Source of the DNA: a virus
Strand: one strand, 5' to 3'
Length of the DNA stretch: 64,000 bases
IMG/VR virus record: IMGVR_UViG_3300032282_006300
Location: 1 to 64,000 of that record
Shown here: piece by piece, positions 9,090 to 38,235 of the stretch
Numbering within the stretch: the first letter of the stretch is position 1
Layout: every line of letters starts with the position of its first letter
Translations under genes and position numbers: made by a program
The notes under the pieces: generated by a model
What the model was told of the DNA's origin: nothing
The model's input: only the letters and a program-made list of their open reading frames with translations
Databases searched by the model: none

Positions 9090-9212
9090 TTTTCTCCTTA
9101 GTTCTTCAAACTTTCGGAGTTGATTTAAGTGATTACACAGTACCCCGCCACGGTAACGATCCGTGTTCCTCAGATTAAAAGTCTGATGCATCACCTTAAT
9201 GCTTGCAGGGCG

Positions 9213-9286
9213 CGACCCTGATCGGACTCGAACCGACGACATCCACCGTGACAGGGTGGCACTCTAACCAACTGAGTTACAAGGCC
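9213..9286 (-). tRNA. tRNA-Asp (GTC)
   Basis: GGCCTTGTAACTCAGTTGGTTAGAGTGCCACCCTGTCACGGTGGATGTCGTCGGTTCGAGTCCGATCAGGGTCG folds as a cloverleaf with anticodon GTC and a TTCGA T-loop. No encoded CCA. Confidence 0.93.
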
Positions 9287-30719: not shown

Positions 30720-30943
30720 GAGTCCGAACTGAAAGTCCGGCGGCGAACTTGCTGGCTGACCCTGAGAGTCCACACAAGGTGTCCCAGCCTGTGATTGTGA
30801 CAAAGACCGGCGACAGTCCGAAGCCCCCTGGAATAGTCCGAACTCAGTCCGGTCATAGTCCCCTAATAGGGTGGTACGCATTAGTCCGAAGTCAGTCCGA
30901 GCATAGTCCCCTATGCTCAGTCCGACCTCAGTCCGGTAGTTCG
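30720..30943. repeat. Iteron-like array of (T/C)AGTCCG units, often 11 bp apart
   Basis: About 9 AGTCCG plus AGTCCC/AGTTCG variants in 220 bp. Confidence 0.85.
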
Positions 30944-32511: not shown

Positions 32512-33348
32512 CTATCCCTCCTCGTAGAAGTCAAACGAGTTCCAAGCCTCGTCCTCGTCCCAATCGTTGTCCCAAGCAGAGCCGTCAGACCCAAGCAAGG
32601 GCACATAGTCAGGGTTGGCAATCTCAGCCAACACTTCATAGCGACAGGTACGCAACTTCTGGAAGTCGCAGTCGCGCGGAACGGATACAACATCGCGAGG
32701 GTTGATTTTCACCTTGACCACGCGAGGTGCGAAGGTGGAGGCGTAGTCCCAAGTGCCAGCGTGGAGTCCGGTAGAACAGCCCTCAAAGGCGTTTGCGTTC
32801 ACGCGATTGCGAGGCATTTCCACGATTGACCCAACAGAGTTCGGGACATTACCGTAGACGGTCTGACCATCTACGATTGCTTCCCCAGAGTGAACCGAGG
32901 TGAGGTCGTCCCTCAGACCCTTGTAGGCGATAAAGTCACCGTCCTCAGTAATGGTGAAGTTCCGGTCGTTGAGCCAAGTGTAAAGTTGCTCACGACTGTT
33001 GCCATTACGGTTCTGGAGTACCTTCTCGTAGAAGTTCACGAGAGGCACGAAATCGTAGATACCCTGCTTCTGAAAGCGCGAGATTTGCGCCGACAAAGAG
33101 TTGTCCACGAGTTCACCATCAACATACACACGACCATCGCTGATTGAGATACGGTCGCTGACCTTCTCAAAGGCTTGTCGTGCTTGCTCGGCTAGGTCAA
33201 ACAAGCCAAACACTTGAGGGTCGTCCTTGATAACTCCCTCAATAATCTGCGCGAACGCAGGGTGATTGTTGGTGGCTGTGTAGACCTTGCCACCTTGTAG
33301 CACCGTAATGGCTGAGCCATTACCTGTGCTGATGAGTTCGTAAAGCAT
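32512..33348 (-). CDS. rIIB: rIIB-like protein
   Basis: NPS-like NRNGNSREQLY...ITEDGDFIAYK...VEMPR...CSTGLHAG...KINPRDVVSVP.D....R.CRYEV. Confidence 0.9.
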   Translation of the reverse strand: MLYELISTGNGSAITVLQGGKVYTATNNHPAFAQIIEGVIKDDPQVFGLFDLAEQARQAFEKVSDRISISDGRVYVDGELVDNSLSAQISRFQKQGIYDFVPLVNFYEKVLQNRNGNSREQLYTWLNDRNFTITEDGDFIAYKGLRDDLTSVHSGEAIVDGQTVYGNVPNSVGSIVEMPRNRVNANAFEGCSTGLHAGTWDYASTFAPRVVKVKINPRDVVSVPRDCDFQKLRTCRYEVLAEIANPDYVPLLGSDGSAWDNDWDEDEAWNSFDFYEEG

Positions 33349-33482
33349 TTCGTTTCCTTCCTTGTAGTTGTTAGTTCTAACTTACCATCTGGGACTGACA
33401 AACCGTGTATTGACGACCGGCGTGTCGTGAGAAGTTTCGGCAGGGCAGGTCAGGCAGGGAAGCCCTGACCTGCCCCTGACCG

Positions 33483-35519
33483 TCACTCGCTGGACTGCTG
33501 ACGCAGGGCATAGGAAGCGTTGAGGTAGATAACAAACTCAGCCCTGACGAGTTCACTATCGGTCACACGACCCAGCCAGATTTCGTTGAGCAGGGGATAA
33601 CTGTGAAGGCTGGTCTTGTAGTCGCTGACCAAAGACTCACCGATAGAGAACGAAAGCGTTCGTGCCAACTTGCGGAACTTGCTCACGACCTCACCGACCT
33701 TCTCATAGCAATCTTTCAGGTCGCGCAGTTCGTCAATGAACTGCTGGTCGTCTACCAATCCCTCTAGCGCGTCAGCGAGTTTGGCTGGCTGACCGAACGA
33801 GTTGTTATTGGAGTTGTAGAGAACAACCTCGCGCGATGTGAACGCTGTCAATGCTTCAGCATAGTCGCGCTTGATTGCTTGTTGGACTGTCAGAGCCAGA
33901 GGGTTCTCTCGCAAGAACTTGTCCTGACGGTTCTTGGCAACTTCCACGACCGCGTAGTTGTCCTCCACAAAATGCTCCACAATACGATTGCGCGAATAGC
34001 CACGGTACTCGTCATTGCTCAGTTCCGTTGGCGAGAAGTAGAGAACCTGCTTGCCAGCAAAGTCAATGCTGTCGGCTGGCATAAGCCCTCCGTTGTTGGT
34101 GACAAGTTCCCAATCCTTAGTGCGTGTTGGGGAGTTCGCGGTGGTCGTTCCAACAGATTGCTTGTGAACTTTGATTGCCTTGATTGTTGAGTAATCAACG
34201 GCAAGAACATTGACCCACTCGCCGACAAAGTTGGTGTCTGCGAATAAGTATTCCGTTGGAGCAGTTTCCAAAGCGAGCGTGTCCACATAAGCGTTCACTC
34301 TCTCAATGGTCGTGGCAGAAGGGTACGACTCACTGCTGTATCCGGTGACAAGAAGTACCTTGCCCAAGTCGCTCGCAATAATAGAACTTTGACGAGAGTT
34401 CTTACGACTACCGTAAGAAGGACTGAGTTGGTGGAGCAGGTAAGAATAACGGAACTGATTGGGCACAGTTTCGCCCCTGAACTCAAACCGCTTGTTGCTG
34501 TCCTCAATGTTGCGCGCAATCGCTCGCCATTGGGTCGCTTCCTCAAAGGCTTCTGCCTTGTTGTTAGCCCTTCCGACATCGGCATAGGCTTTATTGCGTG
34601 CGTTCTTGCGTGCGATGTTCACGAGTTCGGCAAGTCGCTTCTCGGTTCGGTCTGTCAAGTGTAGTTCCTCACGGCTTGGCACGAAGTTGAGTTCGCCCAT
34701 TGGAACTGTGAATACGACAAGGCAATCAAACCAACGGTTGAGTTCGTCTGCGATGTTGCGTGGAGCAGGGTAAGGCACTCCACCCATTACGAAGGTGTGC
34801 GCGCTAATCCTGTCGTCTACCGATTGCGCGCGCCAAGAACTCCAAGCAGGCAGGTTGGTAGCAACAATGGACACATCGTCAGTTCCGACTTCCTTGCCCT
34901 CCACCTTGACATTAGGTTCACCGTCAATCAAGACAGAACCGGACTCCCAGACAGAGAACAGTATCTTAGCCTTGCTTGCGAACTTGTTGTCCGGCTTGGC
35001 TGGGACAGTAATCTTGACTCCGTTGCGTTCGGTCGTGGAGGCGGTGTCCATCACCGACATAGTGCCAGCACCGTCAGTCTTGACTGAGATAAGTACCTCA
35101 GACTTCACACCGTCCTTCACAGCCGTCATAATGAACTGTGAGGCATAGGTCAGGGCAGACTTTGAGCCAAGACCGAGCATACCTGTTTGCTCATTGGACT
35201 CGCGCTTAGTGCTTGCTCCATAGCGTGAGTAGATAGCAGTAATGTCGTCAAGCGACAGCCCTAAGCCAAAGTCCTGAATAGTCAGGAACGGAGAGAGCGT
35301 GTTGGGGAGATTGACCTCAATGGGGGCAGGGTTGCCAGAGGCGATGTGAGAGTCGCGCGCGTTGCTGGAATACTCACGCAAGACTGCCATTTCGGGGTCG
35401 GAGTAGAGGTTGGTCAGAACGCTCATAATGTGAGCGAGCGAGTTCTGGTCAATGCTCATCTCAATGGACTCGCCCTCAAAGGTTGAGGACTTACGAATAC
35501 CTGTCTTTGCTGGTATCAC
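33483..35519 (-). CDS. rIIA: rIIA-like protein (GHKL/HATPase N-terminus)
   Basis: LYSDP.MAVLREYSSNARDSH...IQDFGLGLS...YGASTKR.SN...GMLGLGSKS...SREEL, adjacent to rIIB. Confidence 0.9.
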   Translation of the reverse strand: MIPAKTGIRKSSTFEGESIEMSIDQNSLAHIMSVLTNLYSDPEMAVLREYSSNARDSHIASGNPAPIEVNLPNTLSPFLTIQDFGLGLSLDDITAIYSRYGASTKRESNEQTGMLGLGSKSALTYASQFIMTAVKDGVKSEVLISVKTDGAGTMSVMDTASTTERNGVKITVPAKPDNKFASKAKILFSVWESGSVLIDGEPNVKVEGKEVGTDDVSIVATNLPAWSSWRAQSVDDRISAHTFVMGGVPYPAPRNIADELNRWFDCLVVFTVPMGELNFVPSREELHLTDRTEKRLAELVNIARKNARNKAYADVGRANNKAEAFEEATQWRAIARNIEDSNKRFEFRGETVPNQFRYSYLLHQLSPSYGSRKNSRQSSIIASDLGKVLLVTGYSSESYPSATTIERVNAYVDTLALETAPTEYLFADTNFVGEWVNVLAVDYSTIKAIKVHKQSVGTTTANSPTRTKDWELVTNNGGLMPADSIDFAGKQVLYFSPTELSNDEYRGYSRNRIVEHFVEDNYAVVEVAKNRQDKFLRENPLALTVQQAIKRDYAEALTAFTSREVVLYNSNNNSFGQPAKLADALEGLVDDQQFIDELRDLKDCYEKVGEVVSKFRKLARTLSFSIGESLVSDYKTSLHSYPLLNEIWLGRVTDSELVRAEFVIYLNASYALRQQSSE

Positions 35520-35630
35520 TTTGGAACTTCCCTTCGGTTGTTGTTGGTGACGGTCATCACCTTGTGCCCTAATCATTACACGACAAACGCCGATACTCGT
35601 GGATTGAGTACCGGCGTGTCGCGGATTATT

Positions 35631-35993
35631 TCAGAACGAGTAGGTATTGACCTTCTCAACCGATTTCATACGAGCCTTCAGCACCTTCTCGTACTCCGAA
35701 CGCTCGTGATACACATAGCCACAGGAGTTGCCTGTGCCAACGAAGTAGAAGATTGTGGTGAAGCAGTTGTAAGGGTCACAGGCGTTGTCCATCTTCCACC
35801 TCAGACCCCCCATGTCGTCTACCCAAACATCGTCAATCGGGATACCGCAGGAGAAGTGATACACCTTCGCCAGATAGTCCTTCTTGACCCACCCTTTCGG
35901 GTTGAGCAGTCGCGCAGTCTTGGAGGCTTCCGTCAGGCTGGTGTTCTTTCCCCAGCGACCGTTTCCACCAATGACGACATAGAAATCAGACAT
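35631..35993 (-). CDS. Hypothetical early protein
   Basis: 120 aa with GGGAG RBS, first gene downstream of the non-coding hub. Confidence 0.6.
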   Translation of the reverse strand: MSDFYVVIGGNGRWGKNTSLTEASKTARLLNPKGWVKKDYLAKVYHFSCGIPIDDVWVDDMGGLRWKMDNACDPYNCFTTIFYFVGTGNSCGYVYHERSEYEKVLKARMKSVEKVNTYSF

Positions 35994-36246
35994 ACAATCA
36001 TCTCCCCTGTTGAGTTATGCCAGCACTTGCTGACAAGAACTAACTTAGCACCTCAGACCCCCGAAACCGTGTATTGACCGCTTCGGCGTGTCGCCGGAAT
36101 AGAGATTTCCAACTATTTCCAAACTCTCGGCGTGTCGCTACAAGGGCTGTATGTAAATGCTCTGTAATCGCCTGAAACGATGTGGTTGGTATGGTTGGGT
36201 GGATACGGGGGGTAAGTGGCTCAAATCGCCTCCTACGGCTTCTAAA

Positions 36247-36271
36247 GACCATTGTCCCACATTGTTCCACT
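36247..36271 (-). promoter_or_regulatory. Short MraZ-type GTGG decamer repeat
   Basis: GTGGAACAAT-GTGGGACAAT-GG on the minus strand, 10-bp period. Confidence 0.4.
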
Positions 36272-36456
36272 ATGTCCGATTTGCTCTGCTCTGTTGAGTT
36301 ATGGCTTTCGCTACCTCAAGCATAGCATCACTTGACCCAAAATCTTGGTATTGACTCTCGGCGTGTCGTGAAAAGATTTATTTATTTTCGGCGTGTCGGT
36401 ACTTGATTTCGCGCCTCAAAAGAGTAAAGTTGAGTTTGGTGCCCAAAAACATTTAT

Positions 36457-36472
36457 TCGTACAGGTGTTCTA
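36457..36472. promoter_or_regulatory. LexA (SOS)-box-like site
   Basis: TCGTAC-AGGT-GTTCTA versus the actinobacterial consensus TCGAAC-N4-GTTCGA (2 mismatches). Confidence 0.5.
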
Positions 36473-36654
36473 ATCCAACGACACTCTGTTGCCTCGGTTC
36501 CCTAACTCACCAGCCTAATGCCAAATGGGGCACTTGTCAAAGACCGACACGCGGTTTGGTAGGTGTTTATCATCACACTCAAATCGGCGTGTCTTGCCAA
36601 GATTTCAGGTATGGTTCGGCTATGGTGGTCGTGCCCACGAGCATAACCTACCTT

Positions 36655-36682
36655 ACTTGACATAATGTGTATTATCGGCGTG
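36655..36682 (-). other. dif-like XerC/XerD recombination site
   Basis: CACGCCGATAA-TACACA-TTATGTCAAGT, an 11-6-11 layout. The XerD arm TTATGTCAAGT and the GCCGATAA of the XerC arm match the actinobacterial dif as I recall it. Confidence 0.8.
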
Positions 36683-36824
36683 AGCCACTACGAGTAGGAG
36701 GTCTAGGCACAAATGCCCTTCAGAAGCCCTGTAAGGCTCGCTGAGGGACTTACCCTCCTTCTGTAGGCAATCACCCTAGCCCTTACCTGTTAGGCGCTCA
36801 TGAAGCCATACAGAGCCTCCAAAT

Positions 36825-36951
36825 CTATCCACAGACCTCACGCCTGTATCCACAGGTTATCCACAGGTCGCAAGTTATCCACAGGTTATCCACAAGGTTG
36901 TCCACATTGTGGATAAAATCTGTGGATAACTTGTCCACAGCCTGTGGATAG
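36825..36951. promoter_or_regulatory. Cluster of 10 DnaA boxes
   Basis: TTATCCACA at 36857, 36875, 36886. TGTGGATAA at 36908, 36921. TTGTCCACA at 36898, 36931. One-mismatch boxes at 36825, 36846, 36943. Confidence 0.9.
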
Positions 36952-37055
36952 TGCCTGTCCGTTATGTCCGATTTGCCAGACACGGGGGGTCTCAGCGCCA
37001 GCCAGACCCGCGGGGAGCCATACCATACCCCTACCCCCGCCGCGCGCGTGGACCA

Positions 37056-37276
37056 TAGTCCGGTCCAGTCCGGTCCGTGAGCATGAGCATGACCGGTGTC
37101 AGTGAGCATGACCGAGTCCGGTGTCAGGGCTATAGTCCGATTTCAGTCCGGCGGTTCCCAAAAATAGTCCGAACTTAGTCCGAAGATCAGTCCGAAGCAT
37201 TTTTAAATAGTCCGGACCCATACATGTAAAAAGTCCTCGGCACATCTAGTCCGAAAATAGTCCGGCCATAGTCCGA
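37056..37276. repeat. Second iteron-like (T/C)AGTCCG array
   Basis: About 12 AGTCCG units, many 11 bp apart, same orientation as 30720-30943. Confidence 0.85.
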
Positions 37277-37370
37277 CACAAGTACGCTCGCGTGACGCTC
37301 GCAACTTAATTCAACTTGTTCTCGCCGCCGACTCTTCTTGCACAGCGAACGTGTCCGTAGGCACAAAAAG

Positions 37371-37420
37371 ATGGTAGAAAGTGGTAGAAAGTGGTGCATG
37401 GTGGGGCTTTGTGGGACTTT
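37371..37420 (+). promoter_or_regulatory. MraZ-type binding array (5 x 10-bp GTGG repeats)
   Basis: ATGGTAGAAA GTGGTAGAAA GTGGTGCATG GTGGGGCTTT GTGGGACTTT. Confidence 0.65.
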
Positions 37421-37575
37421 GCTATTAGATATCTGTTAGTGAACTATTGTCCCTATTCGCACGCTTGATTGTAAACGGTACGGGTAATCTTCCAAACACT
37501 ATCGTCCACATGAACGCTACTATGATGTCCATGAGGATATGATCAGGGTCAGATATGTTTTCTAGGAATTGTTCT

Positions 37576-38235
37576 TTACTGATCATAGGACTGATCGTAG
37601 GTGGGATCGTCTTTGATCTCCCGATAGATTCTTTGGTAATCCATCTTTTCTTTGTAATGTTTTTCACACTGGGGTTGTGTTTGACCACTTGTTGTTACAT
37701 AGTCTGCGAATCTTTTCTCAGGACATTGTGAGCATTTTGTTTGGCTCAATAGTTCACTGGCGACTTTTACGGCGATCCGCGGGGTCTTCCCCTGATATTT
37801 CCCTTCAAGGATCCCGTGTTCGCGCACATGCTCGCGGGCGCGGTTGATCGTATCCTCGTTGGGGTCTTCATGTTCTTCGGGGTCTTGATCAGTCCGTGAC
37901 CAGTCCGCGTGATTAGTCTTGTCCGGGTCGATGCCCTTGTAGGGCAAGGGGTGCTTTCCAGCAGAGTCATAAGCATGCGTGTCGTCGTGCGCGAAGTAGT
38001 GCGATGGGACCTCCATCTTGTCGCCATCGCTGTCTGTCAAGACCCACCCCATCGCCCCGAAACGAAGAGAAGGCTTCTCGCGGATCAGTGCGTGAGCGTA
38101 TTCAAGGCAATTGCCGTGCTGCCAGTCGCGCCAGCCGTGGAGGTTGTATCCTCGCTCTTGGTAGTCCTTCTCCCATTCCGCAGTTTCTAGGCTGTCTTCA
38201 TTGTTTTCAGCGACTTTGTACCATAGGTTAGCCAT
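37576..38235 (-). CDS. MxNLWYKVA-leader protein with possible Cys-His-Asp catalytic domain
   Basis: Shared leader, then GNCLEYAHAL...SHYFAH...YDSAG. Confidence 0.65.
   Translation of the reverse strand: MANLWYKVAENNEDSLETAEWEKDYQERGYNLHGWRDWQHGNCLEYAHALIREKPSLRFGAMGWVLTDSDGDKMEVPSHYFAHDDTHAYDSAGKHPLPYKGIDPDKTNHADWSRTDQDPEEHEDPNEDTINRAREHVREHGILEGKYQGKTPRIAVKVASELLSQTKCSQCPEKRFADYVTTSGQTQPQCEKHYKEKMDYQRIYREIKDDPTYDQSYDQ

Follow-up and report, generated by a model that had tools for sequence, protein, structure and literature searches.

A canonical dif-type site of actinobacterial character is present as a single copy in the genome of a large myovirus, where it lies in a non-coding control region next to an array of DnaA-box-like words. 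The window, i.e. the whole stretch of 64,000 nucleotides analysed here, is the first 64 kb of an IMG/VR record of 123,830 bp that is rated complete. On the minus strand, positions 36682..36655 of the window read CACGCCGATAA-TACACA-TTATGTCAAGT, the same letters, TACACA spacer included, that an earlier sequence-only reading of this DNA had given when it proposed an actinobacterial-type dif. Two 11-bp arms with partial dyad symmetry enclose the 6-bp spacer (...GATAA / TACACA / TTATG...). The dif suggested for Frankia alni, CACGCCGATAATGCACATTATGTCAAGT, as it stands in the text of Kono et al. (PMC3025954), is identical to the phage site at 27 of 28 positions, and the sole difference is at spacer position 2. 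We propose that the phage sequence is a working XerCD site, on which the host enzymes would monomerise or circularise a circular replicative form of the phage, and assign this reading a probability of about 0.4.

The site has no second copy in the phage: over all 123,830 bp it is the one match at up to three mismatches, no other match appears at up to four mismatches, and no second XerD arm at up to one. Chance alone would supply about 5e-10 matches at up to one mismatch from the F. alni 28-mer in a genome of equal size and composition. The single copy is non-coding, with no supported ORF across it. As a sequence feature we regard the site as real, and a chance match is excluded as its source.

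The resemblance to dif would be misleading if the sequence were a phage operator or promoter that is recognised by a phage protein instead of XerCD, the XerC arm serving as an additional early-gene box. It had been claimed from the sequence alone that the XerC arm overlaps the early promoter box, and CGGCGTG (plus strand, 36676) is indeed common to the arm and the box family CGGCGTGTC. This family comprises 21 plus-strand copies between 26853 and 36593, each just upstream of a small minus-strand ORF, and one copy on the other strand; six of the boxes lie around the site. In addition, the complement of the site contains TTGACA. However, the overlap amounts to seven bases only: the box match ends there, as no TC follows, and the other 21 bases match dif at 20 of 21 positions. 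A consensus scan for promoters and terminators finds nothing at the site, and the F. alni dif as published in the text of PMC3025954 itself includes CACGCCG. An operator is thus a very improbable explanation. Several copies of the box form the 3' half of a GC-rich hairpin, and the family is restricted to the higher-G+C region (52-55%, compared with about 40-46% elsewhere).

The actinobacterial assignment is borne out by the dif sites of candidate hosts, to which an alignment had been recommended. We scanned one genome per species, 185,579 species in all, for the 25-base core of the site with its spacer. The exact core (25/25) is found in one of these genomes, the 2.9-Mb chromosome of a member of the Acidimicrobiales (G006), where it is the sole dif-type site at zero mismatches. 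It is located 1.33 Mb from dnaA, i.e. at 46% of the circle, which is the position where a chromosomal dif is expected. The arms without the spacer, GCCGATAA-N6-TTATGTCAAGT at up to two mismatches, occur in 101 of 201 sampled Acidimicrobiia genomes, nearly always once per genome, compared with two genomes of the same sample that match a reversed control pattern. Spacers differ among the sampled genomes, and TACACA is seen in G006 only. Owing to the variation in spacers and outer bases, the full 28-mer is rarely matched with three or fewer mismatches: of 151 genomes sampled from the phylum, one (G006) has such a match. The flanks of the G006 site and of the phage site are unrelated, and only the 28-mer resembles host DNA. 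Given its closeness to chromosomal dif, the phage site is highly likely to be recognised by XerC and XerD of a suitable host.

Judged by architecture, consensus, single copy and non-coding location, the phage sequence qualifies as a dif-type site at the level of sequence. Its position is not that of a dif, as it marks neither a replication terminus nor a skew switch. Cumulative GC and AT skew of the phage show no inflection, and GC falls monotonically with no turn at 36.7 kb, although the test is weak since all genes are on one strand.

The gene content supports the description of the genome as large and myovirus-like. Tail sheath and baseplate J genes are present among some 150 ORFs, almost all on the minus strand, and the closest phages in culture infect actinobacteria: the portal shares 41-44% identity with the portals of Rhodococcus phage E3 and Mycobacterium myoviruses, and RIIA is 31-34% identical to RIIA of Streptomyces phages of about 130 kb. 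On these similarities we classify the phage as a myovirus with a distant relationship to actinophages. Matches to DUF732 and DUF6011, and a weak one to DUF4192, give the gene set a further actinobacterial touch; together with the portal relationships and the dif match to G006 they are hints to the host, and no more than hints. The 'terminal repeat' of the record is an 83-bp exact overlap from assembly only, so that the record represents a circular assembly. Two tRNA genes, Lys-ttt and Asp-gtc, are located at 9140-9286, and a 1441-aa ORF at 61711-66036 of the genome (61711-64000 of the window and beyond) has GNAT acetyltransferase domains in its N-terminal part.

The phage encodes a DnaE-type polymerase, a DnaG primase, RecA, a DnaB-type helicase, a class II ribonucleotide reductase, an SNF2 helicase and a 5'-3' exonuclease. 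The observation that no integrase gene lies in the window extends to the whole 123,830 bp: in six-frame searches of the complete genome, tyrosine (PF00589) and serine (PF00239) recombinases give no match at E<=1. The same searches yield no match at E<=1 to ParB (PF02195), ParA/CbiA (PF01656), FtsK or DUF3653 (XafT-like). A scan of the phage genome with what we take to be the parS motif finds no parS-like site at up to two mismatches, and no repressor gene was identified. With no recombinase of its own and a near-perfect host-type site, the phage probably borrows XerC and XerD from its host.

The surroundings of the site, which were absent from the sequence-only reading, are the context of most weight for its function (Table 1). 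DnaA-box-like words T[AG]TCCACA, which we take to be the DnaA-box consensus, occur ten times in 125 bp, compared with 11 times in the other ~124 kb, and this array lies on the side of the XerC arm at a distance of 145 bp. The AGTCCG(A/G) repeats show a roughly helical spacing (~11 bp) in both of their clusters, of 12 and 9 copies. DnaA boxes and iterons are the usual make-up of plasmid-type origins, and the combination of the array with phased iterons makes the control region origin-like. The array is probably a phage origin or a sink for DnaA. A phage that carries its own helicase, primase and polymerase and no recognisable initiator could use host DnaA there.

None of the six small ORFs inside the control region matches PHROGs at E<=0.01, and the flanking 120-aa and 219-aa ORFs have no Pfam or PHROG match. 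Rfam returns sub-threshold matches to miRNA models only, located on the inverted DnaA boxes. At 37570-37626 strain contigs end or diverge and 37656-37800 is uncovered in four sequencing runs, which marks a mosaic boundary where the control region meets the late genes.

Table 1. Features of the dif-type site and its surroundings, in window coordinates
Feature	Position	Strand	Basis or remark
dif-type site, 28 bp	36655..36682	-	27/28 to F. alni dif; unique in phage genome
XerC-type arm	36682-36672	-	sequence read
Spacer TACACA, 6 bp	36671-36666	-	sequence read
XerD-type arm	36665-36655	-	sequence read
Non-coding control region, ~1.6 kb	35994..37575		between 120-aa ORF upstream of rIIA and 219-aa ORF
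DnaA-box-like words T[AG]TCCACA, n=10 (7 plus, 3 minus)	36826..36950		word scan; inverted repeats
AGTCCG(A/G), n=12, iteron-like, several at 10-12-bp spacing	37057..37276	+	repeat scan
Second AGTCCG(A/G) cluster, n=9, 6.3 kb away	30721..30936	+	repeat scan
CGGCGTGTC boxes, n=6 of 21	35612..36593	+	repeat scan; 'early promoter boxes' of the sequence-only reading
rIIA-like gene, first large gene downstream of control region	33483..35576	-	PHROG phrog_612, 3e-87
rIIB-like gene, after rIIA	32512-33348	-	PHROG phrog_609, 6e-60

Based on site and context, and with the control region taken as the main cis-acting region of the phage, we suggest the following sequence of events. The injected genome would circularise, and host DnaA would start theta-type replication from the box array. 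Circles would be fused into multimers by homologous recombination, which the RecA of the phage would favour, and host XerCD would use two copies of the site in direct repeat to convert these to monomers again. Alternatively, XerCD may close a terminally redundant molecule, with one copy of the site at each end, into a circle, in the way Cre-lox does in P1. What the data show are the sequence of the site, its uniqueness, its context and the lack of a detectable recombinase; that XerCD binds the site, that the phage passes through a circle and that it profits from this are inferred. In mycobacteria a minimal 28-bp dif, placed ectopically as a direct repeat, is recombined by endogenous XerCD, and sites with an altered spacer still recombine with identical copies, though not with the chromosomal site, according to the portion of 10.1101/758037 used here.

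The origin context, the RecA of the phage, the missing recombinase and the recurrence of dif together with DnaA boxes in other viruses all speak for use of the site on a circular form. Several points speak against it. Packaging from concatemers gives no obvious need for monomers. A canonical dif normally needs FtsK at the closing septum, and the phage encodes neither FtsK nor an XafT-like activator. Partition genes or a parS-like site, which would suggest stable maintenance as a circle, are absent. The trait is young, the nearest other RIIA lineages being without the site, and most viral dif-type loci (106 of 113) have at most one DnaA box within 300 nt.

The last point derives from a survey of IMG/VR, in which 15 other contigs carry both arms exactly and 113 stretches match a looser dif-type pattern. 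At seven of the 113 loci, belonging to five sequence families, at least two DnaA boxes lie within 300 nt, compared with 0.92 expected from random placement. In one pair of contigs (L002/L006) six DnaA boxes start 10 nt after the XerD arm, and the 25-base core is identical to the one on the chromosomes of two Acidimicrobiia (G032 and G035). Another contig has two DnaA boxes 4 nt before the XerC arm and has a 63%-identical ribonucleotide reductase and a glycosylase in common with the phage; a further one (G004) carries one DnaA box on each side of the site. A 31.6-kb viral contig, which has two proteins in common with the phage, contains three tandem dif-type 28-mers at 29-bp spacing, separated by single bases (G005:C1:14417-14497, locus L028), in a large AT-rich non-coding region. 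No tyrosine recombinase is found in five other dif-bearing contigs, which are fragments of 16-31%. Taken together, independent gains in several viral lineages, often beside DnaA boxes, argue for selection.

Four further contigs (L034, L040, L110 and L122) share one left flank, which is identical as far as the dif-type site AATTTCGATAAACTCTATTATGTCAAGT; beyond the site, three different right flanks are seen. This pattern is the footprint of site-specific recombination and suggests an Xer-exploiting element in more than one genomic setting. As one left flank is joined through the site to three right flanks, such elements do recombine. In L040 and L122 two DnaA boxes and inverted repeats are present about 270 nt upstream of the site.

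The distribution of the site among relatives of the phage bears on the possibility that it is a passenger, i.e. a fragment of a host terminus or the relic of a past Xer event, captured recently by non-coding DNA that is prone to recombination, and with no present role. A profile of RIIA homologues retrieved 33 IMG/VR loci (28-47% identity) and 80 metagenome loci. A clear dif-type site is found in none of the 33 and is absent from 79 of the 80, the exception being metagenome contig L164, which is also the only RIIA locus with a DnaA-box cluster. One other locus (L151) has a site match at four mismatches, and the reversed control pattern also gave one. Two members of the RIIA clade at 43-45% identity, with about 5 kb of upstream DNA, have no site. 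Searches with single proteins, RIIA and the 219-aa flanking ORF, reveal no close relatives in IMG/VR, and BLAST of a 34-mer against 50,697 records of cultured phages gives nothing better than E=1, a search that sites with other spacers escape. The absence from the 28-47% RIIA relatives indicates that the site is a recent gain of the phage species and not a long-kept trait.

A passenger would account for this confinement to one phage species, and the exact core match to one bacterial genome suggests a recent host origin; in addition, the region borders the mosaic break, with no cover beyond ~37.65 kb in all four runs. On the other hand, the 28-mer alone resembles host DNA, the flanks in G006 and in the phage being unrelated; viral lineages have gained such sites repeatedly and independently, often beside DnaA boxes; and arms and spacer are intact in all four variants that cover the site. 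We consider a passenger rather unlikely, while giving it some weight.

To follow the site in strains, we used sequencing runs. Parts of the stretch are contained in 20 runs from 11 studies, none of those listed being an RNA dataset; four runs from four studies were aligned (X2 and X4, freshwater; X3, lake water; X5, sediment). Contigs of X2, X3 and X5 are continuous phage DNA across the site at ~98% identity. Within the 28-mer, changes are seen at the two end positions only: X2 has 36655 A>G, and X3 has 36682 G>A. Contig L164, which is 98.2% identical over 33000-37605 and has phage DNA on both sides of the site, carries the same last-base change as a strain variant and all ten DnaA boxes. The inner 26 bases are unchanged in X2, X3, X5 and L164; this conservation among ~98%-identical strains is not significant, as about 0.5 changes are expected per strain.

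The search for phage-host junctions at dif in metagenomes, which had been put forward as a check, gave none, neither in the contigs of the four runs, three of which span the site, nor in L164, with the proviso that contigs drop rare forms. Loose contig ends lie within the DnaA-box array (36847-36944) or at 35611, 36167 and 37626, and none is at the site; those in the array look like box repeats of other organisms. A gap in X4 at 36655-36731 was considered as a junction and rejected, since contigs end at 36649 and restart at 36796 at a depth of ~3, consistent with low coverage.

These data weigh on lysogeny in the manner of integrative mobile elements exploiting Xer (IMEX), where the site would be an attP and host XerCD would integrate the circle reversibly at the chromosomal dif, resulting in a recombinase-free prophage or a transient hitch-hiking state. 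The whole genome lacks an integrase, and the 25-base core of the site, spacer included, is the same as on the chromosome of one member of the Acidimicrobiales, just as the viral site of L002/L006 equals that of the Acidimicrobiia G032 and G035. Spacer identity is what inter-molecular exchange needs, according to the part of 10.1101/758037 drawn on, and the contig family with one left flank joined to three right flanks also fits. Yet no junction appears in contigs, X2, X3, X5 and L164 having phage DNA on both sides, and relatives of the portal are found in 0 of 401 sampled genomes of the phylum. The gene set looks virulent (a 124-kb myovirus with a replisome and rIIA/rIIB, and with no repressor or partition gene identified). 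Moreover, the site is fully canonical, so that integration would be reversible, with re-excision by FtsK-XerCD, whereas the phage dif-like sites described in the text of PMC3025954 are degenerate. We regard integration of this kind as unlikely.

Side by side, the DnaA boxes and the dif-type site might also act without any recombination, as decoys that titrate host DnaA and XerCD or stall FtsK, such that host replication initiation and chromosome segregation come to a halt as phage copies rise. The juxtaposition of two different host chromosome cis-elements speaks for this, and the triple site of G005, at a 29-bp spacing too close for recombination, looks selected for binding and not for exchange. 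DnaA-box-like arrays are also found in the unrelated lytic phages P483 of Escherichia (L244) and BD1 of Vibrio (L245), where TATCCACA arrays are located in non-coding DNA near the ends of the records; no dif-type arm is nearby in these two phages. However, the phage described here has one dif copy only, and the triple G005 site fits a decoy better. The gain within a lytic cycle would be small, because only those few cells that have dimers suffer when dimers are no longer resolved. A decoy also gives no reason for keeping a perfect spacer and both arms, and we judge it quite unlikely.

A broader version of the proposal of a working XerCD site can be conceived, in which a chromosome-style cis cassette, consisting of a DnaA-box origin and a bona fide dif, is used by some virulent-looking tailed phages of freshwater Actinomycetota. 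In dividing cells, host DnaA, XerCD and FtsK would then replicate and resolve a circular, plasmid-like carrier replicon, or allow it to dock reversibly at the host terminus, resulting in a recombinase-free pseudolysogeny. This generalisation is doubtful at present. If true, the scattered dif-type sites in IMG/VR phage contigs would represent a new class of Xer-exploiting Caudoviricetes.

Compared with the chromosomal dif/XerCD system of Actinomycetota, the phage site has the same length of 28 bp, the 11-6-11 architecture, the single copy, the non-coding location and the arms of Acidimicrobiia. It differs in lying 145 bp from an origin-like DnaA-box array instead of opposite the origin, and in not being marked by a skew inflection. 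IMEX such as CTXphi, VGJphi and TLCphi, as well as microvirus-like and double jelly-roll prophages, resemble the phage in having no integrase and a dif-like site for host XerCD. In the reports as far as they were accessible, those elements are small, non-tailed and mostly from Proteobacteria and Bacteroidetes, with degenerate sites or odd spacers, whereas the phage described here is a 124-kb actinobacterial myovirus; its site is canonical, and no integrated form was found. The phage thus combines the lack of an own integrase with a dif-like candidate attP, as IMEX do. In the text of PMC3025954 an IMEX attP departs from dif, a degenerate XerD arm or a non-matching or longer spacer stabilising the integrated state; in the phage both arms are canonical and the spacer has 6 bp.

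The exploiters of Xer described so far, in the literature as far as we had access to it, are filamentous, microvirus-like and double jelly-roll phages, islands and plasmids, while tailed plasmid-prophages bring their own Xer-like recombinases according to the portions of PMC8026635 and PMC9703825 consulted. Our search of article texts, with supplements and image tables outside its scope, found no publication that describes a host-type dif in any tailed actinophage. The phage site, real as a sequence feature and a candidate in function, would extend Xer exploitation to such a phage. If it works, large phages of lytic type can leave it to the host to monomerise, circularise or integrate their genomes, dif spacers could serve host prediction for uncultured actinophages, and a lysogeny-like state would be invisible to lifestyle predictors based on integrases.

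Plasmid multimer-resolution sites offer a further comparison. Resolution at cer and psi depends on some 200 bp of accessory sequence and on architectural proteins; in this dependence the two differ from the phage site, and to see the DnaA-box array as a counterpart of their accessory sequence would be pure speculation. In common with them and with the mycobacterial Xer-cise cassettes (10.1101/758037, in the part used here), the phage would rely on an extrachromosomal or ectopic Xer site, host XerCD and direct repeats. The array is on the XerC-arm side in the phage and on the XerD side in L002/L006.

Among large myoviruses, P1 carries one loxP site on its genome, on which Cre circularises terminally redundant DNA and resolves dimers. 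Its oriR combines DnaA boxes with iterons, and P1 encodes its own recombinase and partition system. At the level of sequence the two phages are alike in having a recombination site on a large myovirus genome together with DnaA boxes and iterons of an actual or putative origin; they differ in that the enzyme would be that of the host, the phage described here having no ParA, ParB, parS-like site or own resolvase. Finally, the virulent Bacillus phage phi29 carries parS-like and Spo0A sites by which host chromosome-handling proteins act on phage DNA. The sites, the proteins and the host phylum are different in that case, and no parS-like site is present here, but both phages have in common that cis-sites of the host chromosome are placed on phage DNA.
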